Source: an uncultured bacterium (GTDB taxonomy: Bacteria > Patescibacteriota > Minisyncoccia > Phycocordibacterales > CAWITU01). From it: DNA of 64,000 nt. Below the pieces are notes generated by a model, which was given only the letters and a program-made list of their open reading frames with translations, was not told the DNA's origin and ran no database searches. Shown in pieces: positions 12,315 through 64,000 of this stretch (position 1 is the first letter of the stretch; each line of letters starts with the position of its first letter). Where the stretch lies: positions 148,627 to 212,626 of the forward strand of contig CAWITU010000002.1 of the NCBI GenBank assembly GCA_963839205.1. Reading direction: 5' to 3'. Position numbers and translations under genes: made by a program.

Positions 12315-12370
12315 GTTTCCCTAAAATATTTTTAACTTTTCTTCATATTGTTTATGATATGTTTTTTTGC

Positions 12371-23965: not shown

Positions 23966-24286
23966 ATGAAAAATAATTTAAAACAAGGTTCAATACGAAC
24001 AATCATATTCAAAGAAGATGACATATGGTATGCCGTTGGTCTTGAGTTTAATATTGTGACCGAGGGAGACACCCCTGAGATGGCGTCTTTCAATCTTCAT
24101 GAGGCTATTTCAGGTTATGTAGAATCTCTACAACATAGTAAGGTAGGAGGAATGAGGACTGAGGCCACTCTAAACCAGAAGTCTGATCCTGAATATGAAA
24201 AGCTTTGGGATAAGCTAGAAGGCAATAAGCCTATTCCATCTCCGTACCATGTACATTCATTTGGTAGATTTCTTTTATCTAAATAA
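23966..24286 (+). CDS. hicB: HicB-family antitoxin
   Basis: IWYAVGLEFNIVTEGDTPEMASFNLHEAISGYVESL matches the HicB N-domain pattern. Immediately upstream of a clear HicA. Confidence 0.65.
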   Translation: MKNNLKQGSIRTIIFKEDDIWYAVGLEFNIVTEGDTPEMASFNLHEAISGYVESLQHSKVGGMRTEATLNQKSDPEYEKLWDKLEGNKPIPSPYHVHSFGRFLLSK

Positions 24287-24295
24287 TCATACTAA

Positions 24296-24526
24296 ATGCC
24301 GAATGGCCTAATGAATTGGACATTTGACGATGTAATTAAATTTCTAAAGAGACATTCTTTCCTCTATAACTATACGAAGGGAAGTCACTATTTCTATATT
24401 GGCTCTCATGGTGGCATCTCAAGACAAGTTGCTGTCCCATTTCACGGAAGTAAGAGCATAAAGCCAAGGACACTAAAGGGTATTATCCTCCAGTCTGGCA
24501 TATCAAAGGAAGAATGGATGAAATAA
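24296..24526 (+). CDS. hicA: HicA-family mRNA-interferase toxin
   Basis: VIKFLKRHSF...KGSHYFY...VAVPFHGSKSIKPRTLKGIILQSGISKEEW is the canonical HicA/YcfA pattern. Confidence 0.8.
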   Translation: MPNGLMNWTFDDVIKFLKRHSFLYNYTKGSHYFYIGSHGGISRQVAVPFHGSKSIKPRTLKGIILQSGISKEEWMK

Positions 24527-28704: not shown

Positions 28705-30424
28705 ATGAAGAGTGCTCTTATCAGGCTAAGATTTGTCTCGGTAATAATTATTCTCATTGGTCTGGTTCTTATTGTAAGACTTTTTTCTCTGCAGGTAGTA
28801 TCCGGTTCGGACTTTAGAGATGAAGCAAACCAACAATACATAGCACCGACTAGCAATATATACGACAGAGGTTCAATCTTTTTCCAGGATAAAGATGGAA
28901 ATCTTTTGGACGCTGCAAATCTTGAGAATGGATATATTATGGCGATTAATCCTGAATTGGTTACCGATCCAGAAGGTGAGTATTCTAAGATTCAAAATAT
29001 TTTACCTACTGACCACACCACATTCATCCAGAAGGCTACAAAGAAAAACGATAAATATGAACAAATTGCTGATAGAGTAAATTCAACAACTACTAATGCC
29101 GTGATTGCCTTGAATCTTCCAGGAGTAAGTTTTTATCAAGAAAAATGGCGTGATTATCCACTAAGTACGCTAGCCTCCCAGGTTATTGGATTTGTCGGCT
29201 ATGATGGGAATATTCTTGATGGGAGATACGGATTGGAAAAATATTACGACAGTACTTTGGAAAGGACCAACCAAGATCAAAATGTGAATCCTTTTGCTGC
29301 TCTTTTTGCTAGTATTCCTTCAGTTATAAATTGTGATTCCAACGCAAAAGAGGGTGACATTGTAAGTACGATTGATCCGAACGTTGAATCCTATCTTGAG
29401 CAAGAATTACAGACATTACAAGATGACTACCATTCAAAAATTTCTGGCGGAATTATTATTGACCCAAATACAGGTACAAATATATGCCATGGCTGGTAAT
29501 CCATCTTTTGATCCAAACACTTATCAAGATGTTGATGACATTGGAGTTTACACTGATCCACTGGTTCAGAATGTTTATGAACTTGGTTCAATTATGAAAT
29601 CAGTGACGATGGCAATTGGAATTGATACAGGAGCAGTTACCGCTACAACTACTTATGATGATACGGCCTCAATCACTTTAAACGGTAAGACAATTCACAA
29701 TTGGGATCTTACTAGTCACGGACTTATAAATATGCAAAAAGTCTTGAATGACTCTCTCAACGTTGGTGCGGCTTATGTCGAAAGTAAAACCGGTAATCAG
29801 AAGTTTGCAGATTACATGTTTAATTTTGGTTTTGGTGGAAAAACTGGTATCGATTTACCTGGTGAAGCCACTAATCTCGTAGCCAACTTAAAAAGTTCTC
29901 AAGATGTTAACTATGCGACAGCGGCTTTCGGGCAGGGTATTGCGGTAACTCCAATTTCAATGGTTCGCGCTTTGAGTGCGCTAGCAAATGGAGGCTATCT
30001 CATTACACCTCATATCATAAGCCAAATACAATATACAGATGGCACTGTTGAAAATATTAATCCACCAAAAGGGGCACAAGTTATCTCAACTTCAACATCA
30101 AAAATTATTACAGGAATGCTTGTAAATGTGGTGGACCAAGCTATGGATGCCGATGTTGGAGGTGGATTGAAACAGGCTCATTACGCAATTGCGGCAAAAA
30201 CTGGAACCGCCCAACTTGTTGATACTCAGGATGGTGGTTATTATGATAATCGATTTCTACATTCTTTCTTTGGCTATTTTCCAGCAAATAATCCACGTTT
30301 TCTCATCTTTCTTTTCACTGATGATCCACAGGGGCAGGAACTGGCTGTCCATACTCTAGCATTTCCTTTCATAGACATTGCTAAGTTTATGATAGGCTAC
30401 TATAGTATTCCACCAGATAGATAA
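28705..30424 (+). pseudogene. penicillin-binding protein 2 / FtsI-type transpeptidase (one apparent frameshift near 29475)
   Basis: N-terminal TM and dimerisation domain. Transpeptidase motifs S-I-M-K (SxxK), SLN, KTGT. The junction reads IIIDPNTG/QIYAMAGNPSFDPN. Confidence 0.85.
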
Positions 30425-35742: not shown

Positions 35743-35776
35743 AAAAGAGGCGGCCCTTTGGGCCGCCTCTTTTGTT
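35743..35776. terminator. bidirectional terminator between convergent genes
   Basis: AAAAAGAGGCGGCCC-TTT-GGGCCGCCTCTTTTGTT. Confidence 0.8.
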
Positions 35777-36344
35777 ATAAATTTGTCTTCAAATTAGAAG
35801 TTCTAAACCCTAATTTTTCTTTTGGTTTTTCTTCTTCCTGAATAAGTTGTCTCAGTGCCTCAAATACTATTTTAAATTGCCCATCATACTTCTGCTCTAG
35901 TTTTTCTATTTTATTTTGCAAATCTTTGTGAGAAAGGAGAAGCTCCCGAAGTTTACTAAAAATTCTCATAATTTGAATATTTACATTAATTGCCCTTTCG
36001 CTATTTAATACTGTAGAAAGCATGGCTACTCCTTGTTCGGTAAATGCAAATGGCAGTTTTCTTCGACCGCCATATTCAGTCAAACTTGATGTCGCAAATT
36101 GCGACTTCAAGTTTCGGTTTTCATCTTTAGTAAGTTGAAACATAAAATCTAGAGGAAATCTGGTCATGTTTCTTCTCACCGCTTCGTTTAACCTTCTGGT
36201 TTCAACTTCATAAAGTTCAGCCAAATCATAATCCAACATTACTTTTTGGCTTCTAATAATATAGATCTTATTGTTAATTTTACTTTCTATAGTTGTTATA
36301 CCTTGTGTCATCTTAGAATCATGGTTTTTCATGCCGGTATTCAA
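35775..36344 (-). CDS. ORF6N-domain protein (anti-repressor-like), paralog of 12371-12907
   Basis: IYIIRSQKVMLDYDLAELYEVETRRLNEAVRRNMTRFPLDFMF. Roughly half the residues are identical to the other copy by eye. Confidence 0.8.
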   Translation of the reverse strand: MNTGMKNHDSKMTQGITTIESKINNKIYIIRSQKVMLDYDLAELYEVETRRLNEAVRRNMTRFPLDFMFQLTKDENRNLKSQFATSSLTEYGGRRKLPFAFTEQGVAMLSTVLNSERAINVNIQIMRIFSKLRELLLSHKDLQNKIEKLEQKYDGQFKIVFEALRQLIQEEEKPKEKLGFRTSNLKTNL

Positions 36345-36435: not shown

Positions 36436-37243
36436 AACCATCACGACTGAATTATGTTAAAAACATCCAATTTTAAGCGGCCAAAATAACAGCTATTTTT
36501 AACTGTTGTCTTGAGAAGACCGCTAAAAGCGGTTTTTTTAATAACATAACCGACTGTAACTTGAAAAAATAATCCCGCAGCAACGTTCCCTTTTATACAA
36601 GGGGTCTTTAAGACGTTGAACAGCGGAAACAGGTAAATTCCAAACAGTAAGTTTGGAATAGTAGAATAAACAAAAAACGTGGTTTTTAAATATCCTAATA
36701 GGATATTAAGAGCGTATGGTGGATGCCTAGACTCCAAAGAGGCGATGAAGGACGTGGCGTAGCTTACGATAAGCTTCGGGGAGGTGCCTAGCAACCTTTG
36801 ATCCGAAGATTTCCGAATGGGGAAACCCCACTTGATTTAATTCAGGTGATCTCTTCGCAAGAAGAGGAGCAAACCCGGGGAAGTAAAACATTTCAGTACC
36901 CGGAGAAAAAGAGACTAATAAGAATTTCCTAAGTAGCGGCGAGCGAAAAGGAAGAAGCCCAAACTCAGCCTTCCTATAGAGGGCACTCGTAAACTCGTTT
37001 ACTCGAGTATGCGTCGTACACTCTATTGGGTGGCTGGGGGTTGTAAGGTGACAGTCGTATTTGATACAAAGAGTTACAAAATAATTCGTTAATAGAAAAC
37101 GCTGGAAAGCGTTGCCCTAGAGGGTAATAGCCCCGTACATGAAAATGAATTATCTCTAACTGTCATTCTTGAGTACTTCGAGACACGAGTGGCTCGGAGG
37201 AATCTGCCGGAACTAACCGGTAAGGCTAAATACTCTTGGAGAT

Positions 37244-37282
<39 letters not shown>

Positions 37283-38721
37283 GCCCGACGAGGGCAGTGA
37301 AATAGATCTGAAACCATACGTTTACAAGGTGTCGAAGAGGTGCTTGCACCTCGACGGCGTGCCTATTGAAGAATGAGCCAACGAGTTGATGCATATTGCA
37401 GACTAAGCCCGAGAGGGTGGAGTCACAGGGAAACCGAGCGTGAATAGCGCGTAAGTATTATGCATCAGACCCGAAGCCAAGTGAGCTTGTCATGTGCAGG
37501 GTGAACCAGGGAGAAATCTCTGGGGAGGCCCGAACCGGTAAGCCGTTCAATACTTTCGGACGACATGTGATAAGAAGTGAAAAGCTAATCGAACTTGGTA
37601 ATAGCTGGTTCTCTCCGAAATAGCTTTTGGGCTAGCGTCGGATGTTCCTCTTAGGGGTAGAGCACTGGAAGGTCTCGACAGGTCGAAAGATCGCGAGACC
37701 TATCAAACTCCGAATACTAAGAGTTAAGAATCCGGCAGTTAGACTGCGGGGGCTAAGCTCCGTCGGTCAAAAAGGAAACAGCCTAGATCTCAAGTTAAGG
37801 TCCCTAAATTTATGCTAAGTGCACTTAAGGCGGTGAAATTTCTCTGACACTGAGGAGGTTGGCTTAGAAGCAGCCATCCTTTAAAGAAAGCGTAACAGCT
37901 CACTCAGTAAGAGATTTCGCACCGAAGATAATCGGGGCTAAGCATAGTACCGAAACTGAGGGTTTATTTTGTCTTAGGACAAAGTGAGCGGTAGGAGAGT
38001 ATTCTAATCTGCTGTGAAGGTAAAGGGGTGACCCATACTGGAGCGTTTAGAAGTAAGAATGTTGGCACAAGTAACCACAATGCGAGTGAAAAACTCGCAC
38101 GTCGAAAGATCAAGGTTTCCTTGGCAATGATTGTCAGCCAAGGGTTAGTCGGGCCTAAGGGGATGGCGAACGCCGAACCCAATGGACACATGGTTAATAT
38201 TCCATGACTTCTTCATTTTCTGATGGAGTGACAAAGGTCAGTATTGTACGCGATTTATGGATTATCGTTATTGGATTAAGGGTGTTTTACAGGCAAATCC
38301 GTAAGACATAAGCCCAAGATCAGATAAAATGCTTCGCTTAGGCGAAGATAATGTACAAAAGCGGCCTTTCAAGAAAAGCTTCTAAAGATAAAAATGAAGG
38401 AACCGTACCGCAAACCGACACAGGTGATCAGCTCGAGTAGAGCAAGACGAACGAATGAGAGGTCCCCAAGGAACTCGGCAAAAAAGCAGCCGTAACTTCG
38501 GAATAAGGCTTGCCCTTTGTTAACTCAAAGGGCCGCAGCTAAAGTATCTCTGGCAACTGTTTATCAAAAACACAGCTCCCTGCGAACTCGTAAGAGGATG
38601 TATAGGGGGTGACACCTGACCAATGCCAGAAGGTCAAATATCGACGTTGATAGTAGCAATATTATTGGTGATTGATATAAGCCCTGGTGAATGTCGGCGA
38701 TAACTATAATCGTCCTAAGGT

Positions 38722-38956
38722 TCTCAACTGATTCTTTTTGAATGAGTTGAGAAGGACTGGGACGATCATAGGAAATGATAAATAGTTTTAATAATCAAAG
38801 TTAATTACACAAAAGCTACCTACAATGCAGTAATGTATTGTTAGTCCAATATGGTTAATAAGAGACCAACACCATACATCCTAAACAATTTTGCAACGGA
38901 CTTGTCCTCTGCGAAGTCGAAGGATGAAGATAGAGTCCAACTTGAAGGAATAGTTG
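38722..38956 (+). other. 235-nt group-I-like intron/IVS in 23S after U1931
   Basis: The flanks join to CCTAAGGT|AGCGAAATTCC (conserved sequence). The insert follows a T and ends in G. R/S-like blocks AAGAGACCAACA and AAGATAGAGTCC. No ORF. Confidence 0.65.
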
Positions 38957-39619
38957 AGCGAAATTCCTTGTCTGGTAAGTTCAGACGCGCACGAATGGTG
39001 TAATGACTGGAGAACTGTCTCGGGGACTTGTTCGGTGAAAATACAATACCGGTGAAGATGCCGGTTACCTGCAGTTAGACGAAAAGACCCCAGAAGCTTT
39101 ACTACAACTTGGTATTGAGGATATGTTTTTGATGCGTAGCATAGTGGTGAGACTTTGAAGTTTTGTTCTCGGATAAAATGGAGTCAACAGTGAAATAGCC
39201 ATCTTTAAAAATATATTTTCTAACCTCATCGGTAAAAACGGTGAGAGACAGTACCTGGCGGGTAGTTTTAGTGGGGCGCTATCCTCCTAAAGAGTAACGG
39301 AGGAGTTTATTAAGGTTAGCTAGGCGCGAATGGAAACCGTGCCGATAGTGTAATGGCATAAGCTAGCTTGACTGCAAGACGGATATGTCGAGCAGGTGCG
39401 AAAGCAGGACATAGTGAACCGACGGTCCGTATTAGATGCGGCCGAAGATTATCAGACAAAAGCTACTCTGGGGATAACAGGCTGGTTGCGCCTAAGAGTC
39501 CAAATCGACGGCGCAGTTCGGCACCTCGATGTCGGCTCATCATATCCTGGGGCTGGAGAAGGTCCCAAGGGTTTGGCTGTTCGCCAATTAAAATGATACG
39601 CGAGCTGGGTTCAGACCGT

Positions 39620-39916
39620 TCAGAATCGAATTTTTTCGGTTTTGGACCGTCTGAATCGTCGAGGAAATATTATTGTTGCGACCACGCAATATCTGTTAAC
39701 TTGTCCATCACGGCGGCCATAAGGAGAAATTCTTGTGTGCACAGCTGACTTATATCGGTGAATTCCACATTCTATGAAAAGAAGTGCGAGGACGCCTAGG
39801 GAAAATAAAACGAAATTTTATTGCCCGTAGAGACTAAACGTCAGCCATCTTCGTTTGAATTTATTCAAAACAGATGATTACATAGTCCATTCCACACAGT
39901 GATGTGTGAAAAGAAG
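39620..39916 (+). other. 297-nt group I intron in 23S after U2593 (peptidyl-transferase centre)
   Basis: The flanks join to GGGTTCAGACCGT|CGTGAGACAGGTT. The insert follows a T and ends in G. R-like GTAGAGACTAAACG (39827-39840) pairs via GACTA/TAGTC with S-like ACATAGTCC (39880-39888). No ORF. Confidence 0.75.
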
Positions 39917-39968
39917 CGTGAGACAGGTTGGTCTCCTATCTACTGCAGGCGTTGATTTTTGAGAAGAT

Positions 39969-39999
<31 letters not shown>

Positions 40000-40310
40000 T
40001 GACCTCTGGTGTGTCGGCTGTCCTGCCAAGGGCACTGCCGAGTAGCTAAGTCGGGAAAGGATAAACTCTGAAAGCATCTAAGAGTGAAGCCTACTTCAAG
40101 ATTAGAAATCGTAAGACCCGTAGGAGATGACTACGTTGATAGGCGCTAGGTGTAAGACAAGCAATTGTTTCAGCCGAGGCGTACTAATTGTCATTCCTAT
40201 TAGGAAATTTGGAAGTCACGCATTTGTTTATCGGCGCAGGCGAATATCAGTTGAAAAGGTTTTGCGCCACAGAATACCTGTTTAAATAAATTAAAGATCG
40301 AACGTTCAAT

Positions 40311-40419
40311 TCTGGTGATTTGGCGGAAGGGCAACACCTGTTCTCATTCCGAACACAGAAGTTAAGCCTTCTTGCGGCGATGATACTCTTTTGGAGGGGA
40401 AAGTAGCTAGTCGCCAGTA
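40311..40419 (+). rRNA. rrf: 5S ribosomal RNA
   Basis: TCTGGTGA..CCGAACACAGAAGTTAAGC..TCGCCAGT with paired termini, about 100 nt after the 23S. Confidence 0.9.
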
Positions 40420-47165: not shown

Positions 47166-49417
47166 ATGATTAAAACAAGAGTTATTGCCGCTTCGATTGT
47201 ACTTCTGGCCTTGGTCATTGGTGCTTTCAACTATTATTCCGAATTTAAACCGGCATCTTTTGTCGGTGGTTTTCCTTTTAAATTAGGTCTAGATTTAAAT
47301 GGTGGTTCAGAGCTTACATATCAAGCGGATGTTTCTAAAGTTGATCCAAGCGATGTTGCTGGATCTATGCAGGCTCTACATGATGTCATTGAAAATAGAA
47401 TTAATGTTTTCGGTGTTTCCGAACCGGTTGTTGAAACTCAAGAGGCGACACTTCTAAATGGACAGAAAATCCAAAAGTTAATTGTTCAGCTTCCTGGCGT
47501 TACGAATGTTAATGAAGCAATTTCAATTATCGGCCAGACACCGGTTTTGGAATTTCGTTTAGTAAATCCAGCTAAGGCAAAACTTATTACAGCTTCTTCA
47601 ACCCAAGCTGATATTGACGCCGCTTTCGTTCCAGTTGGTCTTACAGGCAGATATTTACAAAGTTCACAAATTCAATTTGATTCACAAAGTGGACAGCCAG
47701 TTGTGTCTTTAAATTTTAATACTGAAGGCGCTGCGATTTTTGCTTCAACAACTAAAAATAATATTGGTCAGATGTTGGCGATATTCTTGGACGGCAAAAT
47801 TATTTCTAGCCCAGTAATTCAGCAGGAAATTGATAACGGTCAGGCCCAAATATCAGGTGGTTCAATGACTGCGTCAGAAGCCAAGACTTTGGCTCAGAAT
47901 TTGAATTATGGTGCACTTCCAGTTCCAATCACACTTATTGGTACTCAGACAATTGGTGCCTCACTTGGTATTGATGCCTTGAATAGAAGCGTTAAAGCTG
48001 GTATTATAGGCTTTGCAATAATCGTTCTATTCCTTATCCTTTGGTACCGATTGCCGGGACTATTGGCAGGAATTTCACTTTCAATATACGTTCTCATGAT
48101 GCTCGCAATCTTTAAGTTGGTTCCAGTAACACTTACCGCAGCTGGACTCGCAGGTTTCGTTCTCTCTATCGGTATGGCTGTTGATGCGAACATTCTTATC
48201 TTTGAAAGAATGAAAGAAGAACTTCGAAATGGTAGAACTCTAGAGGATGCGACACGAGAAGGATTCACACGAGCTTGGACATCCATCCGTGACGGAAACC
48301 TATCAAGTATTATTACTGCAATCATCTTGTTCTGGTTCTCCAGCACCTCAGTTATCAAAGGTTTTGCTTTAATCTTCGGAGTTGGAGTTTTGGTAAGTAT
48401 GATTACAGCCATCAGTATTTCTAGAACATTCCTATTGGCTGTGACACCAAAGAGTAATTCAAAATTTGTGAGATTTTTATTCAGTAACGGATTTAATTTA
48501 ATAATCATGTTCGTCATTAAATACAGAAAAATATTCTACTCATTCTCAGCACTGCTCGTGGTTATTTCAATCGCCTCACTTTTAATTTGGGGCCTTCATT
48601 TCGGAGTTGATTTCACCGGTGGTTCAGTTTTAAATGTCTCATACTCTCCAGCACGTCCATCATTGGATATAATTAATGCTCAAGTTAAGCCTCTTTCCTT
48701 ACAATCAACTAAATTCAGCCAAGCGGAAACAATGGTTACATAATTACGACTAAAGCACTTACAGAAGATCAACATCAAGGTCTTCTAAATGCCATTTCTC
48801 CTAGTGGAAGTTCAACGCTCACGGTTGATAGTTATAATACAGTTGGTCCGATACTTGGTTCGGAACTAGAAGGGAAGTCAATCGTCTCAATTATTTTAGT
48901 TATTATGGCCATTGTTCTTTTCATAACCTGGGCTTTCCGAAAAGTTTCGGAACCTGTTTCTTCCTGGATCTATGGTCTCATCGCCATTTTTGATTTGATT
49001 CACAACGTTATCGTGCCTGTGGGTATCTTTTCAATTGTTGGACATTTCTTGCACTTCCAAGTAGATACACTTTTCGTTAACGCAATTTTGGTTATTCTTG
49101 GTTTTTCTATTCACGATACGATTGTTGTATTCGATAGAACTCGTGAGAATTTGAAATTAAATAGAGAACATAATAAGAAAGAATCTTTTGATAACGTTGT
49201 TGGGCGAAGTATTAGTCAGACTATGGTCAGATCAATCAATACTTCACTTACAGTAGTATTTACACTGCTTATCCTGTATTTCTTCGGCTCAACTACTACC
49301 AGAGACTTCTCGATGGTTCTTCTCGTTGGTATCGTGGTTGGTACCTATTCCTCAATCTTTTTGGGTTCTCCTCTCCTAGTTACTATTGAAAAGTGGCAGA
49401 ATAGAAAGAAAAACTAA
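47166..49417 (+). pseudogene. secDF: fused protein-export membrane protein SecD-SecF (one apparent frameshift near 48730)
   Basis: SecD periplasmic domain and 6 TM, then a SecF N-terminus in the same ORF. The frame changes at ..SQAG/NNGYIITTKALTEDQ.. and the SecF TM bundle continues to 49417. Confidence 0.9.
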
Positions 49418-49462: not shown

Positions 49463-49837
49463 ACCCCCTACGTCCTTAATGGGCGGTTCTTTGAAAATTA
49501 TCTGTCTAAAATCACGATTTATCTTGAATTTAGACAGATTGAAATATTGCCCTGTGTAGCTTTAGCGTAGAGCGGGTAGGACCGAGAACGTATTAACGCT
49601 CTGTATTGCCTCCTATCGAGCAGCTATGGAGGGAAAACGTGCAAGTCAATTAAAATATTTTTTTGTTCTCCCGCGGAGCTCGTCAGAGCAAAGTGGGAGT
49701 AAATAATTCCAAAAACAATGATCAATTGTTGGATGAGCTAGGATCAAACTTGTTGGTGAAATATAAATTTAGATTAAGTACTATTTTTTATTTTGCCTCA
49801 TTCTAATAAATATAAGTATTTATACTTTTTATTTAAT

Positions 49838-51324
<1,487 letters not shown>

Positions 51325-52397: not shown

Positions 52398-53451
52398 ATG
52401 CAAAATAAAAAAACTAAATATAATTGCCACAATTGGTCCTGCTACTGAAAGTCAGTCACAGTTAGAAAAACTACTCAAAGCGGGTATGACTTTCATGCGC
52501 CTAAATTTTTCGCATGGTGATTTTGAAGAGCATGCTAAGAAAGTTAAGAATCTAAAGAAGGCTTCCAAGGCTACTCATATGAAGGCAATAACATTTCAGG
52601 ATCTCGGGGGACCAAAAATACGAACTGGAGAATTTCATACTCCAAGTGGTAGGGCCCATATTGAAGCAGGTGAAAAGTTTATACTTACCACTTTAAAAGC
52701 AAAAGGAGATGGAACCCGAGTTCATATAACTTACAAGAAATTACCAAAAGAAGTTAAAGTCGGTCATCGAATTATGCTTGATGATGGAAAAAAGGAATTG
52801 GATAGTTACTTCCATAAAAGGAACAGAGATTATTACTAAAGTAATCGTCGGTGGGGAACTCAAAGGGAGACGCGGAGTTAATCTTCCTGATACCAATCTT
52901 TCAATCAGTTCACTAACATCGAAAGATAAAAAAGATTTAATTTTTGCTATTAATCATAAACTTGATTATGTCGCGCTTTCATTTGTCAGGATCCTTCTGA
53001 TGTGATTGAACTTCGCAAAATTCTTAAAAAAGCTGGATCAAAAGCTGGTATCATTGCGAAAATAGAAACACCTCAGGCTGTAGACCATATTGATGAAATT
53101 ATAAAATTATCTGACATGATTATGGTAGCGAGAGGAGATTTGGCAGTTGAAATTCCTGCTGAAACAGTTCCATTGGTTCAGAAAATGATTGTTAGAAAAT
53201 GTAATAAGGCTGGTAAGCCAGTCATTGTGGCCACTCAGATGTTTGAATCAATGATCCATGCTTCAACACCAACTCGCGCCGAAGTCTCAGATGTGGCTAA
53301 TGCGGTCTTGGACGGCGCAGACGCTGTTATGCTCTCAGAAGAAACCACTTTAGGTTCTTATCCGATTGAATCAGTAGTTATGATGAATAAAGTAATTACT
53401 GCAACTCAAAAGGAAATGCGAAATCCTCATTTTCTTAAACACATAGTCTAG
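52398..53451 (+). pseudogene. pyk: pyruvate kinase (A/B domains only), about 3 apparent frameshifts
   Basis: [78 protein letters not shown] 52398 is out of frame across a 7-A run. Further frame changes near 52805 and 52995. Confidence 0.85.
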
Positions 53452-53960: not shown

Positions 53961-55763
53961 ATGAATAATGAGGAAAAAGTAACTTATTTTGCCGAGACCG
54001 ACTCGCGCAACAAGCGGATTCCTTTTGGCATCAAAAATAAGGATAGATCTCGCCACACTTATGTGATTGGTAAAACTGGCATGGGTAAATCAACTTTGCT
54101 TGAGAATATGGCTGTTCAGGATATTAAAAACGGCGAAGGCTTTGCTTTCATTGATCCTCACGGAAAATCAGCCGATCTTCTTCTTGAATATATTCCAGAG
54201 TCGCGAATTAAGGACGTACTGTACTTTGCGCCATTTGATATGGAGTACCCAGTCTCCTTTAATGTGATGGAGGATGTAGGGGCTGACAAAAGGCATCTTG
54301 TTGCAAATGGTTTGATGAGCGCTTTTAAAAAGATTTGGGTTGACGCTTGGTCAGCTCGTATGGAATATATTTTGAATAATATTCTGTTGGCCCTCCTTGA
54401 ATATCCAGATTCAACTTTGATTGGTGTTAACAGAATGTTGGCGGACAAGGATTATCGAAAGAAAGTCGTTGATAATATTACTGACCCGTCGGTTAAATCT
54501 TTTTGGGTTGATGAATATGCTAAATACACTGATCGTTTTGCTGCCGAAGCCGCACCTGCAATTCAAAACAAAATTGGACAGTTCGTTTCTAATCCGCTCG
54601 TTAGAAATATTATTGGTCAACCAAAATCAACTTTTGATATTAGAAAATTGATGGATGAGAAAAAAATTCTCATTATTAACCTTTCCAAAGGAAGAGTGGG
54701 TGAATCAAATGCCAACCTTTTGGGGAGTATGCTTATCACTAAGATTTATCTAGCGGCAATGTCTCGAGCCGATCTAAGTGAAGATGAACTTAAAACCAGG
54801 CCCCATTTTTATCTCTATGTGGACGAATTTCAAAACTTTGCTAATGAATCATTCGCAGACATTCTTTCTGAGGCTAGAAAGTATAAATTAGATTTAACTG
54901 TAGCCCATCAATATATTGAGCAAATGTCGGAAGAGGTGAGGGCGGCGGTTTTCGGAAACGTTGGTACGATGATTGTCTTTAGAGTGGGTGCTTATGATGC
55001 TGAAGTATTGGAAAAAGAATTTGCACCACAATTTACAGCGGAAGATCTAGTTAATCTTGGTTTTTGTCAGATATATTTAAAATTGATGATTGATGGGGTA
55101 AGTTCATCACCTTTCTCGGCCGTAACATTACCGCCAATTAAAAGGGAAGCAACTTCTTTCCATAATCAGATAATTGAAAGTTCCAGAGATTCTTATGCTA
55201 GACCTCGTAATGTTGTTGAAGAAGAAATTAAGATTTGGCATGCTCCAATTGAATCACCAAGACCCGCTCAAGCCCCAAGATCTGCTTTTGTGGACAAGAA
55301 GACTATTCCAACAACTCAAAATCAGTCACCAAAATTTACAGCGCAGCAACCCAGAGAATCAATTAACCGAGATAGAAAACCATTCGCACCTCCGCTTCCA
55401 CCACCTGCTCCGGTTCAACAAACACCAGCTCAGACTCGACAAGCGGAGCGTAATGTTCGAGATTCACGTGAGACTGAGATTCGAAAGGCGATGTCATTGG
55501 ATTATTTAAAACCAAAGGTTGAACCTGAAAAGAAAAAAGAGCCAAGTGCTCAAAATATTGCAGACTTAAGAGCGGCACTTCTTTCGGTATTGCCAGCAGA
55601 ATCAATTAAGCAGACCCAGCCACCAGCTCCTCAACCTAAGCCTAAAATGCTAGAAGTAAAAAAAGAGGAGACTACTGCTGTTCAAAATAATGAAGCTAAG
55701 ACAAAAGAGGTTCCGGAGGAGGTTCTAAGAAAAATATTACATGTCGATGAACCCGAAAGTTAA
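53961..55763 (+). CDS. TraD/VirD4-like (type IV coupling-protein family) P-loop ATPase with Pro/Gln/Lys-rich tail
   Basis: Walker A GKTGMGKST, Walker B-like HFYLYVDEFQNF, AHQYIEQM. The C-terminal roughly 190 aa are low complexity (PPLPPPAPVQQTPAQT..). Confidence 0.65.
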   Translation: MNNEEKVTYFAETDSRNKRIPFGIKNKDRSRHTYVIGKTGMGKSTLLENMAVQDIKNGEGFAFIDPHGKSADLLLEYIPESRIKDVLYFAPFDMEYPVSFNVMEDVGADKRHLVANGLMSAFKKIWVDAWSARMEYILNNILLALLEYPDSTLIGVNRMLADKDYRKKVVDNITDPSVKSFWVDEYAKYTDRFAAEAAPAIQNKIGQFVSNPLVRNIIGQPKSTFDIRKLMDEKKILIINLSKGRVGESNANLLGSMLITKIYLAAMSRADLSEDELKTRPHFYLYVDEFQNFANESFADILSEARKYKLDLTVAHQYIEQMSEEVRAAVFGNVGTMIVFRVGAYDAEVLEKEFAPQFTAEDLVNLGFCQIYLKLMIDGVSSSPFSAVTLPPIKREATSFHNQIIESSRDSYARPRNVVEEEIKIWHAPIESPRPAQAPRSAFVDKKTIPTTQNQSPKFTAQQPRESINRDRKPFAPPLPPPAPVQQTPAQTRQAERNVRDSRETEIRKAMSLDYLKPKVEPEKKKEPSAQNIADLRAALLSVLPAESIKQTQPPAPQPKPKMLEVKKEETTAVQNNEAKTKEVPEEVLRKILHVDEPES

Positions 55764-57108
55764 GGCACTCATTGAGGGAAAGAAAATAACTGTTATGGGC
55801 CTCGGCCTACTCGGCCGAGGCCTTGGTGATGTCCGTTTTTTAGCTTCTCATGGAGCTATACTTACTGTCACCGATCTTAAATCTAAAGAAGCACTCAAAG
55901 AGAGTCTGGCTTCACTTCAGGATATTCCAAATATAGTTTTTCATCTCGGAGGCCACGTTCCTCAAGATTTTAAAAATTGCGACATGGTTTTAAAAGCCGC
56001 TGGAGTTCCACTAGATTCCCCCTACATTGCTGAGGCTAGGAAGAATAATATACCGATTGAAATGAGTTCTGCTCTTTTTACAAAATATGCAGAGGTGACA
56101 GTGATTGGAGTCACAGGTACAAGAGGGAAATCAACGGTGACCCACCTCATCCACAATATGTTGGTAAATAATTTTGAAGGTTCTGATACCGAGGTGTTTC
56201 TTGGTGGAAATGTGAAAGGAATTTCCACATTAGCTCTTTTTGATGAAATTAAAAAAGGGGACTACGTTGTTCTTGAACTTGATTCATGGCAACTACAAGG
56301 TTTTGGTGAAGATAAGATAAGTCCCCATATTGCGGTATTTACGACATTCATGCCTGACCACATGATTTACTATAAAAATGATATGAATCTTTATCTTGAA
56401 GATAAGGCAAATATTTTTAAATTTCAAAATGGTAATGATTTCTTGGTGCTCGGAGAGCAGGCAGTGGACTTGATAGAGGAAAAATATGCTGGAGTTATTA
56501 AATCAAAGAAAATAATTGCAAAAAATAGCGACATTCTGAGTAATACTAGAATCCGTATCCCCGGAGAACATAATATAAATAATATTTCTGTCGCAACTCA
56601 GGTCGCAAAAGCTTTAAATATTTCTGATTCGGTCATTAGAAGAAGTATTGAATCATTCAAGGGTGTGCCTGGAAGGTTAGAATTTTTAGGCGATAGGGAT
56701 GGTGTAAAAATTTATAATGATACAAATGCGACTTCACCTGAGGCAACCATTGTTGGTCTGAAAGCACTCTCGAAAGATAAGAATATTGTTCTAATTATGG
56801 GAGGGCACGATAAAGCACTAGATATGGCTGAGCTGATTAAAGAGATTCCGAACCACTGTAAGAAAGTAGTTATCCTGCCTGGGACCGGAACGGATCGTGT
56901 TTATGAGTCTATCGTTGGGACTAATGTGCCTGTAGAGAAGGCAAATGACTTGGCCGAAGCCGTGGGAAGTGCCTTGGCTTCGGCCACATCTGGTGACATT
57001 GTCCTCCTAAGCCCTGCTTTTGCCTCATTTGGCCTGTTTAAGAACGAATATGACCGGGGTGATCAGTTTAATATCCTTGCTAAAAAATGGCTTAGCAAAG
57101 GCGTATAG
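55741..57108 (+). CDS. murD: UDP-N-acetylmuramoyl-L-alanine--D-glutamate ligase
   Basis: Rossmann-like N-domain (ITVMGLGLLGRG) and Mur ligase P-loop GVTGTRGKST. Full three-domain length. Confidence 0.9.
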   Translation: MSMNPKVKALIEGKKITVMGLGLLGRGLGDVRFLASHGAILTVTDLKSKEALKESLASLQDIPNIVFHLGGHVPQDFKNCDMVLKAAGVPLDSPYIAEARKNNIPIEMSSALFTKYAEVTVIGVTGTRGKSTVTHLIHNMLVNNFEGSDTEVFLGGNVKGISTLALFDEIKKGDYVVLELDSWQLQGFGEDKISPHIAVFTTFMPDHMIYYKNDMNLYLEDKANIFKFQNGNDFLVLGEQAVDLIEEKYAGVIKSKKIIAKNSDILSNTRIRIPGEHNINNISVATQVAKALNISDSVIRRSIESFKGVPGRLEFLGDRDGVKIYNDTNATSPEATIVGLKALSKDKNIVLIMGGHDKALDMAELIKEIPNHCKKVVILPGTGTDRVYESIVGTNVPVEKANDLAEAVGSALASATSGDIVLLSPAFASFGLFKNEYDRGDQFNILAKKWLSKGV

Positions 57109-57170
57109 TTTAGGTAATTATCCTCATATCCATTTGATTTATCCCTTGTTTGTGATATAATAGGCAACGT

Positions 57171-57458
57171 ATGAAAAACAGACATTCAAACGGGAACAGC
57201 GGTTTCATTTATGCGGCTTTTCTGGTTTTGGGAGCACTTTTCATCTTAGCTTCAGGGGTTTCAACCCTCTTAAGTGATGGAGGAAAAGCTGACCCAGGAG
57301 ACCTCTCAGGGGCTACTCCTTTTACTGTGGCTGCAGTAGCAACAAGTACAGCAACCTCAACAGATGATCTAGTTGCCTCAAGTAGTGTGGATATGACAGC
57401 TTCGTCTACAGCAACCACAACTATTGATTCAACTTCTACAGCAACTTCAAGTAATTAA
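57171..57458 (+). CDS. small TM-anchored Ser/Thr-rich protein
   Basis: TM (FIYAAFLVLGALFILASGV) followed by a low-complexity tail, ATSTATSTDD..SSTATTTIDSTSTATSS. Confidence 0.4.
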   Translation: MKNRHSNGNSGFIYAAFLVLGALFILASGVSTLLSDGGKADPGDLSGATPFTVAAVATSTATSTDDLVASSSVDMTASSTATTTIDSTSTATSSN

Positions 57459-57497
57459 TCTTAGTTAGTAAGAGATTTTGTACTATAATAGGTTTCT

Positions 57498-58768
57498 ATG
57501 AAAGAGGAAATAAATATTTCTGATATTAAAAATGTCTACTTTATAGGCATTGGTGGTATTGGCATGTCCGCTTTAGCTCTCTATTTAAAACACCTTGGGA
57601 AGAATGTTGTCGGTTCTGATACTGGCTTCGCTTCGTATGAAAATTTAGTTGAAACTGGTATAGATGTTCACAAAGATTATGACTCAACCAGAATAACTTC
57701 TTCGTATGATGTTGTTGTTTATACTTTAGCAACTCCGAAAGATAATGAAGAACTTTTGAAAGCGGGTGAGTTGGGACTGCCAATCTTCACTTATGCTGAA
57801 ATGTTGGGTTTGGTCTCAAAGAATAAAAAAACTATCGCTATCTCGGGCACTCACGGTAAGACAACTACCACCGCCATGGTCGCTAAAGTATTAATTGATG
57901 CCGGCCTTTCACCAACTGTTATTGTTGGAAGTTTACTTAATTATCCTTTTGGCCAATCAGAAAAGAAAACTAATTTTATTGCAGGCGATAGTGAATACTT
58001 TGTCGTTGAGGCGTGTGAATATAAAAGATCATTTTTAAATTTATATCCATATATTTTGGTAATAACAAATATCGAAGCTGATCATTTAGATTATTATAAG
58101 GACCTCAGTGATATTCAAGAGGCATTCAAGGAGTTGTCAGATAAGGTGCCGAAAGATGGTCCATAATCACTTCAGCGGAATATGACAAGTATATTCAGTC
58201 AGTACCACCTTTAATGAAACCAGGAGAACATAATCGGAAAGATGCTGCTGCGGCATATGCTGTGGCTAAGAAACTTGGAATTCCAGAGGAGGTGATAAAG
58301 AAATCACTTGCTGATTTTCCAGGAACCTGGCGACGGTTTGAATACAGGGGAAAAACTCAAATTGGCGCCTTAATTTATGATGATTATGGTCATCACCCAA
58401 CCGAAATTAAAGCTACATTAGAAGGAGCCAGAGAATTGTTTGGAGATAAAAAAATAATTGCCGTTTTTCAACCTCATCTATACAGCAGAACTAAAGATCA
58501 CCTTCGTGATTTTGGTGAAGCGTTCACAGATGCAGATAAAGTTATTATTGCTCCAATCTTTGCTGCAAGAGAACCATTTGATGATTCAATCTCTTCTGAG
58601 ATGCTAGCTGAAGAAATAAATAAAAATGAAACTGGAAAAGCCCGCGCTATTTCATCTTTCGATGAAATAGCGCGGGCACTTCTTTCTGAAATTTCTTCAA
58701 ACGACGTAATAATTACTATCGGCGCAGGTGATATCTACAAAGTCATTGATCATCTGATGAATAAGTAG
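57498..58768 (+). pseudogene. murC: UDP-N-acetylmuramate--L-alanine ligase (frameshift near 58165; shortened central segment)
   Basis: GIGGIGMSALA, ISGTHGKTTTTAM, NIEADHLDYY, then after a frame change ..PGEHNRKDAAAAYAVAKKLG..GTWRRFEY..DDYGHHPTEI. Confidence 0.85.
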
Positions 58769-58776
58769 ATTAAAAT

Positions 58777-59913
58777 TTATCCGTTGAGTATTGGTTCTAG
58801 TCTTTGAAATAAATCCAAAGCATTGCGAAAAGTCTGGTCCATATTAAAATATTTATAATTGGCCAATCGCCCTACAAAATAGATACCATTATCTTCTAAC
58901 TTTTCAGCTTCAATTTTATACTTATCGTAAATTGAGCGATTATTTGCAGATGGAACAGGATAATATGGTTCACCGTCCCAAGTTGGATACTCGCGCACGA
59001 TTGTTGTTTTTGGATTTATCTGTTTTGTTTGATGCTTATACTCAACTATTCTTGTAAAGGGTATTGAAATGTCTGGATAGTTTTCTTGCACAACCTCCTG
59101 AAAAAATTCTTGATTCAATGTTTCCTCTTCGAAACGAAGTGATCTATATTCTAATTTACCAAGTTCCTCTTTAAAATATGAATCAATCTTACCTGTAAAA
59201 AATAGCTTATGGTATGACACAGAACCCTGAATTTCTTCCCAGCTAGTGTTAAGTCTAATCTCTATATTTTGACGATTAAGCATATTTTCAAAAATCTTAG
59301 TGTATCCATCCTTTGGGTAATATTGATATTTGTCAGTAAAGTATCTGTCGTCATGGTTTTTTCTAATTGGAATTCTGTCCATAACACTTGGTTCAAGTTC
59401 TCTTGGACTTTTATCTCATTGCTTGGTCGTGTAATTCTTAAGCATCTTTTCATATAATCTTTTACCAGCTCTTTTTAGTGCGGATTCCTCAGAATTTTGA
59501 GGTATTTCTATTTTCTCGACCTCTTTGTCTAACCATTTCTCCATGTCAGATTCGTCTTTAATCCCAGCATTAAAAATAATATTCACCGTATCCATGTTTA
59601 TAGGCATCGGTACTTTTTTGCTGTCTACATGACTTAATACCTTAGCCTCAAATGGCACCCAATCCGAAAATTTCTGAACATACTGCCATACACCTTCGTC
59701 ATTCGTTCTGAAATAATGTGGCCCATATTTTGAAATTCTAATTCCAGATTCATTATCCTGATCATAACAGTTTCCACCTATATGATTGCGTTGTTCTATA
59801 ACAAGAATTTTTATTTCTTTATTTTGTGCGTACCTTTCTGCAAGAGTTGCTCCAGATATTCCAGCCCCAACAATAACAATATCCCACCTTTCTTTGGTTA
59901 AGGTAGTCTTCAT
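58777..59913 (-). pseudogene. glf: UDP-galactopyranose mutase with in-frame TGA at a conserved Trp
   Basis: FAD motif VGAGISGATLAERYA. The two tracked ORFs are in the same frame, separated only by TGA (59416-59418) in ..NYTTKQ*DKSPRELEPSV.., where UGMs have KQW. Confidence 0.85.
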
Positions 59914-60776
59914 TTTCTTAATTCCGTATCAATTTTTTGGAAGATAGCCGAATCAATATTCAAATCAAATTTACGAGCAAACAATTCGGGAGTTTTTTTA
60001 AGTGATTCAAGATCATGAACAGTGAAGGTTGCGGGATAGGGGCCATAGGGCTTGGACCAGTCTACGTAGGTTAAGTTTTTATTAATAATGTTTCCCTTGA
60101 TATCATCGTTGCTATTTAATAGTACTGTTTGAAAGAATAATTCATCAGCTAAATAGACATGTTTAAAGAAATTCAAAAAAACTACATTATTGTTTGAAAA
60201 GTTCACTAAATATTCGGCAACTGATCTTGGGCAACCAAACCAGAGTTCACCACCATATGCCTTGTAATTTAATGGTATCTTTCTGCGTGGTAAGAAGAAA
60301 TTCATTATATTTTCAATTCTTCTCAGATACCTATTGCGCGAAACAAACAAATGATATCGCTTAAAGCGGTGCGTTCCACCACCTTTCCAGCTTGAAATGG
60401 GTAGGGCAGTAAAGGACATAAATGTTTTGTCCCTGTTCTTGCCCAAGTAGTCTATAATTTCTCGAGTTGTTTTAATTGGGTAATCCTGACCACTTAAAAG
60501 ATACAAATAATCAGGATCTATCCTTTCAATTGCAAACTTAAAAGCACTCAATACCGCCCCAAGAACATTACCCCATTTAGATTCTATTTGCGGAGCAAAA
60601 AATACTTTAGAAATGTTTGCAAGTTCTTGCTCAAATTGCTTTATTCCAACTTTTTTATCAACGTGAATGACAAAAAAGCTATTTTCAGATTGGAGGCTAA
60701 GTACAAGCTTTTTTAGCTGGATTGGGTTTTTGTGAACTAAGATAACATATGATATTTTTATATCTGAGTCGCTCAT
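59910..60776 (-). CDS. GT14-family (core-2/I-branching type) glycosyltransferase
   Basis: ISYVILVHKNPIQLKKLVLSL...FFVIHVDKK and the downstream Branch-domain pattern. Confidence 0.75.
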   Translation of the reverse strand: MSDSDIKISYVILVHKNPIQLKKLVLSLQSENSFFVIHVDKKVGIKQFEQELANISKVFFAPQIESKWGNVLGAVLSAFKFAIERIDPDYLYLLSGQDYPIKTTREIIDYLGKNRDKTFMSFTALPISSWKGGGTHRFKRYHLFVSRNRYLRRIENIMNFFLPRRKIPLNYKAYGGELWFGCPRSVAEYLVNFSNNNVVFLNFFKHVYLADELFFQTVLLNSNDDIKGNIINKNLTYVDWSKPYGPYPATFTVHDLESLKKTPELFARKFDLNIDSAIFQKIDTELRK

Positions 60777-60860
60777 TGTATTTGTTGGTTTTCATTATAC
60801 AATAGAACAATATTAATTACAGAATTACTATGAAAGTTGACGCTGAGGACTAAATAATCT

Positions 60861-61706
60861 ATGACAAAACCAATTCTCAGTATATTTTATGTTGTGGGTG
60901 GTGGCGACGAACACTATACCAATCTAGAGCGGAGTATAAAAAGTTTGGAGGAAAGGCTCGGGGTTCCATATAAAGTGGTAGTACTTGAGGTTGGTGAGCG
61001 CCTAGTTTCTACTCTAGGAGTCACCGTTTATCACATTTCTCCATTCGAGAAATCACAAGGAAGAAAAATGGATTTTAAGTTTTGGCAGCAGAAATACACT
61101 ATAGGTGATTATATTGATACCGAATACGGCCTCTATCTAGATACTGACACAGTTCTTGTACAGGATAATTTTGCGGAGATTATGCCTGCAATTGGAAATA
61201 AATTTGGTGTGGCGTTACATTTTTGGTCACCGAATTTTTGGCGCTATGGACGTTTGGCTATTCCTTTAAAAAATGCCTGGCGATTCATTATGTTGATGAG
61301 AAAGCTCGACGTGGGTTTGAGTACCCCATTCTTTGCAGGGGGAGCGTTCATTTTTAAAAATATTGAACAGAATAGACGTCTCCTTAAAGAGGTTCTTTCT
61401 CTTTATGACTATGTTTATCCTGGAGTATCAAATTATTTCAAAGGCATTACTGACGAAGTTTTTTTTAGTGCACTATTGTGGAAAGAGAACAAATTTGTTT
61501 CAATTGGTGGCGGCTTCAATCATTCTTGTATGGGGGATGAATTTATGCCATTGCGTATCGAAAATAATGTTATTTATGGAAAAAATGCCAATGAGGCCAA
61601 ATGGAGGAAAGTAACTTTTTTTCACTGCGATCCATCCAGAAGGGACCCATCCTTGCCTTATCAAGGTAAGTTAAAGGAGCTAGTACGCAGGGTATGGTTT
61701 ATGTAG
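60861..61706 (+). CDS. putative GT-A-fold glycosyltransferase (DxD)
   Basis: 281 aa with YLDTDTVLV (DxD-like). Sits inside the glycan locus. Family not recognised. Confidence 0.4.
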   Translation: MTKPILSIFYVVGGGDEHYTNLERSIKSLEERLGVPYKVVVLEVGERLVSTLGVTVYHISPFEKSQGRKMDFKFWQQKYTIGDYIDTEYGLYLDTDTVLVQDNFAEIMPAIGNKFGVALHFWSPNFWRYGRLAIPLKNAWRFIMLMRKLDVGLSTPFFAGGAFIFKNIEQNRRLLKEVLSLYDYVYPGVSNYFKGITDEVFFSALLWKENKFVSIGGGFNHSCMGDEFMPLRIENNVIYGKNANEAKWRKVTFFHCDPSRRDPSLPYQGKLKELVRRVWFM

Positions 61707-61779
61707 GCCAATTATTTATAATATGCATTGCCTTGGCAACGGTTATACAATGTACAGATGACACCAGTCAACAAATTTC

Positions 61780-62467
61780 ATGAATAAAATAAGCGTCATT
61801 ATGCCGGCATATAATGCTGAGCGTTATATAAAAGATTCCATAGAAAGTATTCTAAACCAGAGCGAACGTGATTTTGAATTTATCATAGTAGATGATGGAT
61901 CTACAGATAAAACTTCATTGATTATTTCTTCTTTCTCAGACCCACGACTTAGAGTTTTTAAAATTAATCATTGTGGTCTTATTTACTCATTAAATTTTGG
62001 AATCTCTAAGGCAAATGGTGAATATATTGCTCGAATGGATGTTGATGATATTTCAGAACCAAACCGTCTCAAAAAACAGGCTGATTTTCTTGATGACCAT
62101 CCAGATATAGCCCTGTGTGGTAGTTTCGCTACAATCATTGATGAAAATGGAAAAGTAAAAGGGAGGTTGGAATATTCGCCGATAGAAGATAAAAATATTA
62201 GGAGATATGCTCTACTCCATAATCCATTTATTCATCCAACGATTATGATTCGTAAGAAAGTTTTCGATTCAGTCGGGATGTATAAATCACTTTTTCAAGC
62301 ATGTTGAAGATTATGAATTATGGACTCGAGTACTCAGAAAATATAAAGGAGCAACATTATCTGAAGCTCCTTTTAAATATCGCATTCATGAAAACCAAAT
62401 TACAAAGAGAGGAAATTTTGAGATGAGATTGCGTGGCCATATATGTAAGGTTATTAGCATTCTATAA
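61780..62467 (+). pseudogene. GT2-family glycosyltransferase (one apparent frameshift near 62300)
   Basis: ISVIMPAYNAERYI..IIVDDGSTD..ARMDVDD, then after a T5 run the frame changes to ..FKHVEDYELWTRVL..YRIHENQITK. Confidence 0.85.
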
Positions 62468-62473
62468 GAATAT

Positions 62474-63269
62474 TTATATTTTAATCCAAGCTACTGGAAC
62501 AATGTCTGAATCTTCTTTTAGTTGAAACCATTTTTTTGGAGCAATCACTATTTTCTCTGAATTTGAATTAAGCCAAGCAGCCCACCAACTAAATGAAGAG
62601 TTGGCTATTATTTGATTTTGCACGAACTCATTAAATGGATTTCTTCATAATCTTTAATTACGTGCGTTTGATACCAAAATTATAGGTTCACAAAATTAAT
62701 ATTTTTTTTTGCCCATTCAATATCATCCGAAAAAATAAAAAACGTGGGGGATTGAACTTTTTCTTTAATGTATTTAACTGCCTTTTTATAATATTCCAAA
62801 TCACAAATTCCATGGTACGCGTTGGTTTTTTGGTCCGTAACATAATCACCACGTCGGATGTGGACTGCGATTGGACTCTGGACTCTGAATAATTAGATCT
62901 GATATTTTATTTGAGTCGCTCGCCAGTGGCAGTTTCAGTGTAAAATCTTCTCGAATAATTTCCTCAATATCCTTGAAATATTTCTCATTCTGGTAATGTG
63001 GGTAGGTGGTGAACAGCTTTTTGGATTCCTTTTTGATAAAATCTTTTTAAATAATTTTTTTTACTAGGTTTAAAAACAACAGCTTGTATATTAAATACAT
63101 CTAAACCAAATCTACGAGAAGTATCTATTTTTTCTGGAAAAATCAAATATTCTAGGTCAAGTATTAATTTCTGGTTTTTTTTAATACTCTGACTTTTACC
63201 TTTAGCATATTGAAACATCTGATTTCCGAGGCCTCCACTAAGATATTGAACAAATGCCCTGTCCACCAT
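62474..63269 (-). pseudogene. GT11-family alpha-1,2-fucosyltransferase, at least 4 frame disruptions including a 7-bp tandem duplication
   Basis: [49 protein letters not shown] are recovered from three frames. GACTCTG is duplicated at 62874-62887. Confidence 0.85.
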
Positions 63270-64000
63270 ATTTTTTCTGATAATGTTTCTTAAGTAATTC
63301 TTAATATAGCTCAAAAATATAATAAGTTTATCCCTTGAAGTCATTTGAATGTTTCTTAAGAAAAAATGTCCACCATATTTTTTCTTGTCTCTCATTAGTA
63401 TTATTGGACCATACGGTAGAACCATTCCTTCTGGATAAGCAAACGAAGGTAATAATATTTTTGTTTCGTCTAATCTTGACGATAAGTATTTGTTCCAATG
63501 GGATTCATCGTGCCATATTGCAGTAATATTTTTTTTAGTGTCATTATCAATATCATTCTGTAATTGTTTTATTGCAGCACAAAACACCTTACTACTTCCA
63601 CCATTTATTGCTCCCTGAAAATATGGTTCATTATCTTTAGGGGTAAAGAATGCTTTAGACATAGGATTGGATTCAAAAGGCTTTTCATTAATTAAAGCGT
63701 TGGAATATCCTGGATGAGTAACCGCAACAAAATTTTCCTTACCGCTTGGTAGTATTTCATTACTTGCTAATGGCTTGATAAATAAAGTATTTGCGTTGAA
63801 ATAAAAAATAAAATCGAATTGGGCGATTTCATCAATATCGTCGAGAACATCTCGTAACGTCTCAAGGTATTATTTGGCCAACCCAAGTCTTCTTGATAAA
63901 TTTTTTTTACGTTTAGGTTATTCTGGCATTCAAATTCGATATTGGAGCATCAGTAAAAACAAAGTATTTTTTTTGCGCCCCAGAAATAAAATATTCCTCA
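63270..64000 (-). pseudogene. GT6-family glycosyltransferase (NXN type), 5' end outside window, 2 apparent frameshifts, no stop before the GT11 ORF
   Basis: EEYFISGAQKKYFVFTD, LGWPNNTLRRYEMF, FDFIFYFNANTLF (NAN instead of DXD), AIWHDESHWNKY, PIILMRDKKKYGGH. Confidence 0.8.

Follow-up and report, generated by a model that had tools for sequence, protein, structure and literature searches.

Bacterial UDP-galactopyranose mutases (UGMs) with solved structures, among them 3HDQ from Deinococcus radiodurans, 1I8T from Escherichia coli and 4MO2, join a Rossmann fold that binds flavin adenine dinucleotide (FAD) to a full GLF domain. One tryptophan of the active site, W184 of the D. radiodurans enzyme (DrUGM), corresponds to KpW160, EcW156, MtW166 and AfW167 in a published table of active-site residues (PMC3322874). 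In this work we deal with the glf gene for such an enzyme in a 64 kb stretch of DNA from an uncultured Patescibacteria strain (contig CAWITU010000002.1), the whole of which was analysed and is called the window hereafter. The same domain and the same fold are encoded here, but the codon equivalent to DrW184/EcW156 is TGA in the record, hence the gene appears as two fragments, one of 165 aa and the other of 201 aa. We lean, if only slightly, towards reading this TGA as a G-to-A consensus error in a long-read, probably nanopore, assembly, the true codon being TGG.

Several known systems come close to this locus. In genetic code 4, which is used by Mycoplasmatales and some endosymbionts, UGA is read as Trp, and in code 25, which occurs in the Candidate Phyla Radiation (CPR) lineages Gracilibacteria and Absconditabacteria, it is read as Gly. 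The glf locus resembles such systems in that a conserved Trp column carries an in-frame TGA and that the genome is of CPR type with a low GC content (38.5% in the window); it differs from them in that the case is the only one in 68 open reading frames (ORFs), TGG is the Trp codon, and TGA terminates genes. The nonsense pseudogenes of surface-polysaccharide loci offer another likeness, i.e., one premature stop in a glycan-precursor gene within a strain-variable glycosyltransferase cluster. Unlike these, glf has only the one lesion and gives no hint that selection on it is relaxed, and the allele is known from the deposited record only.

Consensus errors of long-read assemblies are also well documented. 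Metagenome-assembled genomes (MAGs) built from uncorrected nanopore data below about 40x coverage keep residual indels and frameshifted gene calls (PMC9262707), methylation-linked nanopore errors can pass 50% of the reads and survive into assemblies (PMC11610603), and G-to-A and A-to-G changes are the leading nanopore substitution bias, with artefacts possible that look like single-nucleotide polymorphisms (bioRxiv 10.64898/2026.01.14.699587). The window resembles such MAGs in its frameshifts within intact-looking essential genes, which are assembly-specific in the two cases that could be checked, and in differences that are GATC-enriched and transition-biased, whereas the glf TGA is unlike these errors in being a substitution outside GATC.

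The glf gene and the position of its stop

The glf gene lies on the minus strand (59913-58777) as a frame of 378 codons. Its translation is interrupted by a single internal stop, the TGA of codon 166 at 59418-59416, for which the plus-strand letters 59416-59418 are TCA. The two ORFs of the gene, 59416-59913 (165 aa) and 58777-59382 (201 aa), are both on the minus strand and share one frame, since the distance from 59913 to 59382 is 531 nt, i.e., 3 x 177. Around the stop the translation runs ..KNYTTKQ*DKSPRELEPSVMDRIPIRKNHDDRYF.. or, in the other rendering, ..KNYTTKQ*DKSPRELEPSVMDRIPIRK... An uninterrupted frame of about 370-380 aa, as in the homologs (367-385 aa), is therefore missing from the record, in which the two fragments are entered as separate proteins; according to the cluster table, both of them, like all the other broken fragments of the window, are found on only one NCBI/ENA contig, presumably the source.

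The identity of the gene product leaves little room for discussion. The Pfam GLF profile (PF03275) is matched over its whole length (1-203 of 203) with 230 bits, the domain starting at residue 156, and it is preceded by an NAD_binding_8 match over residues 14-82 (E = 6e-17) with the GxGxxG motif present as IVGAGISGA. Comparison with DrUGM (3hdq) gave E = 1.8e-97 over residues 9-373, and the nearest Patescibacteria homolog is 73% identical. The N-terminal part (59419-59913, codons 1-165) carries, by Pfam, the FAD Rossmann fold, in which VGAGISGA is found, and reaches into the GLF domain, while the C-terminal part (58777-59415, codons 167-378 plus TAA), assigned by Pfam and by active-site mapping, continues in the same frame. 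By these matches the glf product is predicted to be an ordinary bacterial-type UGM that catalyzes the interconversion of UDP-galactopyranose (UDP-Galp) and UDP-galactofuranose (UDP-Galf).

The stop falls, column for column, under the W of the YT(R/E)KQW motif of the solved UGMs 3hdq, 4mo2 and 1i8t, and counting along the 3hdq alignment identifies it with W184 of DrUGM. When the protein was aligned with its 120 best homologs, this column was W in all 120. The remaining positions of the active site were checked against the published DrUGM set of H85, Y179, T180, W184, R198, Y209, F210, N296, R305, E325, Y335, R364, Y370, N372 and M373 (PMC3322874). Fourteen of the 15 are kept, as H66, Y161 and T162 before the stop and, in the C-terminal part, as R180, Y191, F192, N278, R288, E308, Y318, R349, Y355, N357 and M358; the sole residue not found is the W184 equivalent, which is the TGA. 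Among the other columns conserved in at least 95% of the sequences, 95 of 97 are also kept, the exceptions being F158L and A361T, of which the former is at the DrF176 position, where UGMs differ from one another (PMC3322874, table). The five other conserved Trp columns of glf are all coded by TGG.

The stop is a true interruption of a real gene and not an accident of ORF calling, because an invariant residue is hit inside a gene that scores 230 bits over the full GLF profile. Besides, since the rest of glf is intact on both sides of the stop, the lesion is either very recent or not real. A sequence-only reading made earlier had claimed that the two ORFs share a frame, that the TGA is the only interruption between them, that it sits exactly on the conserved Trp, and that one transition (TGG to TGA) suffices to create it; all of this was borne out by the alignments and the frame analysis described above.

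Single-base frameshifts in neighbouring and distant genes

At least eight frameshifts of a single base are present in the window, in recA, a penicillin-binding protein (PBP) transpeptidase, secDF, pyruvate kinase (three), murC and a GT2 glycosyltransferase. They were found by reading the translated ORFs, then by Pfam profile coordinates, and then by a check at the nucleotide level; an automatic count based on abutting open frames gave no discrimination in a genome so compact. Each of them is a change of frame by one base, with the protein sequence strongly conserved through the break, for example at GKTTL| in recA, at DPNTG|..IYAMAGNPSFDPN and in SecF.

In recA, on the minus strand, the break (GKTTL|) lies at 14908-14922, with RecA profile positions 3-78 on one ORF and 92-262 on the next. 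The other genes are on the plus strand. The PBP2/FtsI-like transpeptidase is broken at 29473-29488, its PBP_dimer and Transpeptidase domains being on overlapping ORFs in different frames, and secDF is broken at 48717-48735 within its SecF part, where SecD and the SecF GG motif come first and a separate ORF takes up SecF at profile position 54. In murC the site is 58152-58166, with Mur_ligase and Mur_ligase_M on one ORF and Mur_ligase_C on the next. The GT2 gene is broken at 62285-62300, in a run of five T. These last two lesions are at 1.26 kb (murC) and 2.9 kb (GT2) from the glf TGA.

Pyruvate kinase (52402-52999 for the lesions, with profile positions 29-135 and 206-328 on separate ORFs) carries its three frameshifts within 600 nt, at an A7 run (52402-52419), at TTGGATAG (52794-52809) and at CAGGATCC (52985-52999). 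A fragment of it still scores 189 bits over 123 residues, and conservation is strong across every frame switch. This is unlike an old pseudogene, because three real frameshifts would have brought with them many substitutions and stops. We also note that the pyruvate kinase frame (52402-53451) stops just past the barrel, with profile position 328 of 328 reached at residue 125 of the last fragment, and that there is no PK_C domain, tRNA-Leu and tRNA-Pro following directly; the enzyme may be naturally short.

These lesions put the load of single-base errors in the assembly at 1.3 or more per 10 kb, and about one eighth of the recognisable genes in the window are broken. The clustering of the lesion positions is weakly significant, the signal coming from the three pyruvate kinase lesions. 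A fresh inactivation of secDF, murC, PBP, recA and pyk together in a viable cell is implausible. Look-ups of the intact genes adjoining the recA, PBP, pyk and ftsK lesions returned no matches. Exact look-ups of the two glf fragments in the gene index were also negative, which is weak evidence.

As a separate observation, two regions rich in Thr, Ser and Gly that resemble surface proteins (19424-22715 and 25377-28324) are each split into several ORFs in differing frames, the first with a PG_binding_1 N-terminus at 19424 and the second with a Beta_helix domain at 25792-26703. They probably contain further frameshifts.

Independent contigs of the same population

Part of the region could be compared with three other contigs from this population. 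A Logan contig of 3145 nt from run ERR10755936 (L081) covers window positions 59603-62749 and is 100% identical over 59603-62271, which includes glf codons 1-103. In this contig the GT2 gene is intact, with four T where the window has one T more, so that the product is of 226 aa instead of 175 aa. A second Logan contig (L084, 998 nt) covers 57006-58003 with 100% identity. The third one (L083, 3170 nt) is 'contig_89363' of the ENA assembly ERZ25039472; it covers 55335-58506 with 99.34% identity, 13 mismatches and 8 gaps. At the murC lesion the window has AAGAT-GGTCC and L083 has AAGATCGGTCC, the lost base being the C of GATC, and murC is in frame in L083. Conversely, murD is whole in the window but broken in L083 by indels of that contig's own.

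Both of the window frameshifts that could be checked, those of murC and GT2, are thus specific to the assembly under study, which is demonstrably unreliable at the single-base level near glf. The 'nonsense mutation' is no more than one reading of the TGA, beside a second that is about as likely. The base itself is outside every independent contig: positions 58507-59602 are uncovered, and the Logan contigs lack 58004-59602. A DNA pattern spanning the glf TGA, with the third base left free, had no match in the JGI metagenome contigs, the best match for glf among the GTDB species representatives was only 73% identical, and a protein search with the C-terminal part returned at 100% only the 201-aa fragment of the record itself.

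The same comparison had a bearing on another peculiarity of murC. Even with its frameshift mended, MurC is shorter than a solved MurC by about 44 residues in the central domain (residues 229 to 238 against 225 to 278 of 9ir5; window 58160-58225). An assembly deletion was considered as the cause and rejected, L083 having the same gap. Being common to an independent contig, the gap is a real, lineage-specific shortening.

Error spectrum of the assembly

The differences between the window and L083 have a marked context. Six of the 21 differing columns are inside GATC, a motif that makes up 37 of the 3175 columns (P = 1.2e-7), and 11 of the 13 substitutions are transitions. The murC lesion is within such a motif, and a lesion of pyruvate kinase falls at GGATCC. 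The error context suggests that this Patescibacteria organism methylates GATC in a Dam-like manner. In the window GATC is also somewhat scarce, with 169 occurrences against 224 expected from base composition. The name of L083 has the 'contig_N' form of Flye, as in a nanopore-derived MAG (L005). With checked lesions that are absent from the independent assemblies, differences enriched at GATC, a lesion at an A7 run, and substitutions biased to transitions, we think that the data are probably nanopore-derived. The TGA site also has a GGATA context in common with one of the pyruvate kinase lesions; this likeness of two sites, being post hoc, was not used.

Consensus error or real nonsense allele

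If the TGA is a consensus error, the true codon 166 would be TGG in an assembly rich in single-base faults, and the cell would make a normal, active UGM of 378 aa, which would convert UDP-Galp to UDP-Galf for the adjacent glycosyltransferases. Several observations argue for this. There are at least eight frameshifts in the window, with errors as close as 1.26 and 2.9 kb; glf is otherwise undamaged; TGG to TGA is a G-to-A change; and the site is located in a stretch where the Logan k-mer assembly failed and to which the faulty murC base belongs as well, within a lesion-rich 5 kb.

Other points weigh against it. The demonstrable errors of the window are all indels, whereas the glf lesion is a substitution, and its site, AATGAGATAAAA, is outside GATC and outside long homopolymers, with no specific error mechanism shown. 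Wherever the window and L083 differ by a substitution (13 positions), it is the window that seems to be the correct copy, and its substitution error rate may be low. The sequencing platform of the source record is only inferred. Surface-glycan genes, moreover, are often inactivated for real. As a rough expectation, a handful of substitution errors per window, of which 2-4% would make a stop, gives 0.1-0.5 error-made stops per window, close to the 0.1-0.3 expected for real nonsense alleles in about 68 genes. As the two expectations are similar, the priors are comparable, and it is the local evidence that tips them slightly in favour of the artefact. Thus, we infer with a mild preference that the glf TGA base is one of the assembly errors.

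The alternative to be taken most seriously, although we place it somewhat below an even chance, is a real and very recent nonsense mutation, either fixed or polymorphic, which would cut UGM to a 165-aa FAD-domain fragment with loss of the Galf glycan. The base is, after all, present in the deposited record; UGA from UGG is the commonest hit on a Trp codon; the lesion is of the substitution type, whereas the proven errors are indels; and strain-level turnover is suggested where the glycan cluster ends nearby (62272-62749, and a fused ORF at 62985-63662). An otherwise intact gene is likewise what a very recent mutation would leave behind. However, glf shows no further decay at all, the base is without independent confirmation, the assembly has been proven unreliable on both sides of it, at murC and at GT2, and no copy in another assembly, intact or broken, was found.

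A real stop would have clear consequences for the enzyme. The product would end after residue 165, retaining the FAD-binding part and some of the helical domain and losing W184 and the equivalents of R198, R305, R364, Y335 and Y370, and Galf-containing glycans would be lost with it. If translated as written, the gene would be null for UGM, because the 165-aa fragment is without more than half of the enzyme. Rare read-through by tRNA-Trp could restore a trace of the wild-type protein. The sequence-only reading had taken the TGA for a nonsense mutation that inactivates Galf synthesis: the predicted effect stands for the gene as written, but the mutation itself is now in doubt, since the base may be a consensus error in an assembly whose murC and GT2 lesions are its own.

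Genetic code, read-through and selenocysteine

A real TGA that is decoded, either by low-level read-through with near-cognate tRNA-Trp or by reassignment to Trp (code 4) or Gly (code 25), is very improbable. Reassignment would be conceivable in a CPR-type bacterium, given the occurrence of code 25 in Gracilibacteria and Absconditabacteria, but the codon usage of the window is clear in this respect. Its 68 curated ORFs, which comprise 16,897 codons, use TGG 167 times and have a single in-frame TGA, the one of glf, and the stops are TAA in 44 ORFs, TAG in 14 and TGA in 10. When TGA was taken as sense, no well-formed gene of the window was lengthened apart from glf. The ORFs ending in TGA include ftsK, with its ATGA overlap at 15656, and the Branch-family (core-2/I-branching) glycosyltransferase identified by Pfam upstream of glf (59910-60776, minus strand), whose TGA overlaps the glf ATG, also as ATGA. 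As the exact 288-aa product of the latter recurs in an independent Logan contig, TGA is a working terminator in the gene adjoining glf. Both code 4 and code 25 can therefore be rejected for the window, and decoding as Gly would, in addition, be a misfit in a column that is W in every one of the 120 homologs. The opinion of the sequence-only reading that a code-4-type reassignment is unlikely, based on TGG as the Trp codon and on genes that end in TGA, is thus confirmed and extended by these counts, which also found no second in-frame TGA at a conserved Trp or Gly.

Read-through is attractive in that UGA is usually the leakiest stop, tRNA-Trp is near-cognate to it, and Trp would give back exactly the wild-type residue. 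The possible leakiness proposed in the sequence-only reading holds in principle, but nothing in the window speaks for it. The three tRNAs of the window, tRNA-Ile(GAT), tRNA-Leu(CAG) and tRNA-Pro(CGG), include no suppressor with a UCA anticodon, and no significant structure downstream of the UGA and no promoting context were identified. The base after the UGA is G, which in E. coli is not the leakiest context. A more elaborate possibility, to which we give a smaller chance still, is that the TGA is real and maintained, read-through yielding a small and possibly condition-dependent dose of wild-type UGM as a dimmer or phase-variation switch; if true, such a switch would tune a Galf-containing surface glycan in host attachment or phage evasion.

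Selenocysteine can be dismissed as having a negligible chance: a weak hairpin does start about 10 nt past the UGA, roughly at the position of a bacterial selenocysteine insertion sequence, but the best fold (-10.4 kcal/mol) is no better than shuffled sequence (z = -1.55, with 11 of 200 shuffles equal, without significance), the column is Trp in 120 of 120 homologs and never Cys or Sec, and UGM chemistry depends on reduced flavin with no redox-active Cys or Sec.

The glycan cluster and other features of the window

The glycan cluster around glf holds Branch, GT2, GT6 and GT11-like glycosyltransferases. Its end at 62272-62749, which adjoins 2.67 kb of perfect identity with L081, differs from that contig by 28 mismatches, about half of them transversions, and 6 indels in 476 nt. 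These differences fall in a fucosyltransferase-like gene (GGLGNQMFQYA). Further on, the ORF at 62985-63662 joins a GT6 C-terminal remnant (profile positions 213-290 of 313) to other sequence, a GT11-like remnant among it. This end of the cluster could be strain-variable or decaying, or it could be a chimeric consensus of two strains.

The 23S rRNA gene (36696-40204) has 3509 nt, about 580 nt more than its 2925-position model, and contains an ORF of 126 aa (39368-39748) with no Pfam match; no intron family of Rfam was reported in this gene. Together with the 5S rRNA gene (40311-40419) it is unlinked from the 16S rRNA gene (49834-51324), located 9.4 kb downstream with tRNA-Ile after it. Such an unlinked arrangement is typical of CPR genomes. 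Two ORF6N-domain proteins of the window are paralogs, encoded on opposite strands at a distance of 23 kb (12359-12907, plus; 35775-36344, minus). In the region 23966-24526, a small ORF that may be the HicB partner comes before a HicA toxin gene (24296-24526).

Implications

The elements of this case, i.e., a glf gene, the standard code, and a consensus error or a loss-of-function allele, are all of known kinds. Its practical value is that of a quality flag, given that about one eighth of the genes in the window are broken by single-base lesions and that at least two of these lesions are assembly artefacts. We think that any call of a pseudogene, of recoding, of frameshifting or of metabolic loss made from this contig needs read-level confirmation first; for instance, a loss of peptidoglycan synthesis, of recombination or of glycolysis should not be inferred from the broken murC, recA and pyk. 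With regard to the biology of the organism, if the stop is real, one uncultured strain of Patescibacteria would carry a commonplace loss-of-function allele in a gene for a surface-glycan precursor.

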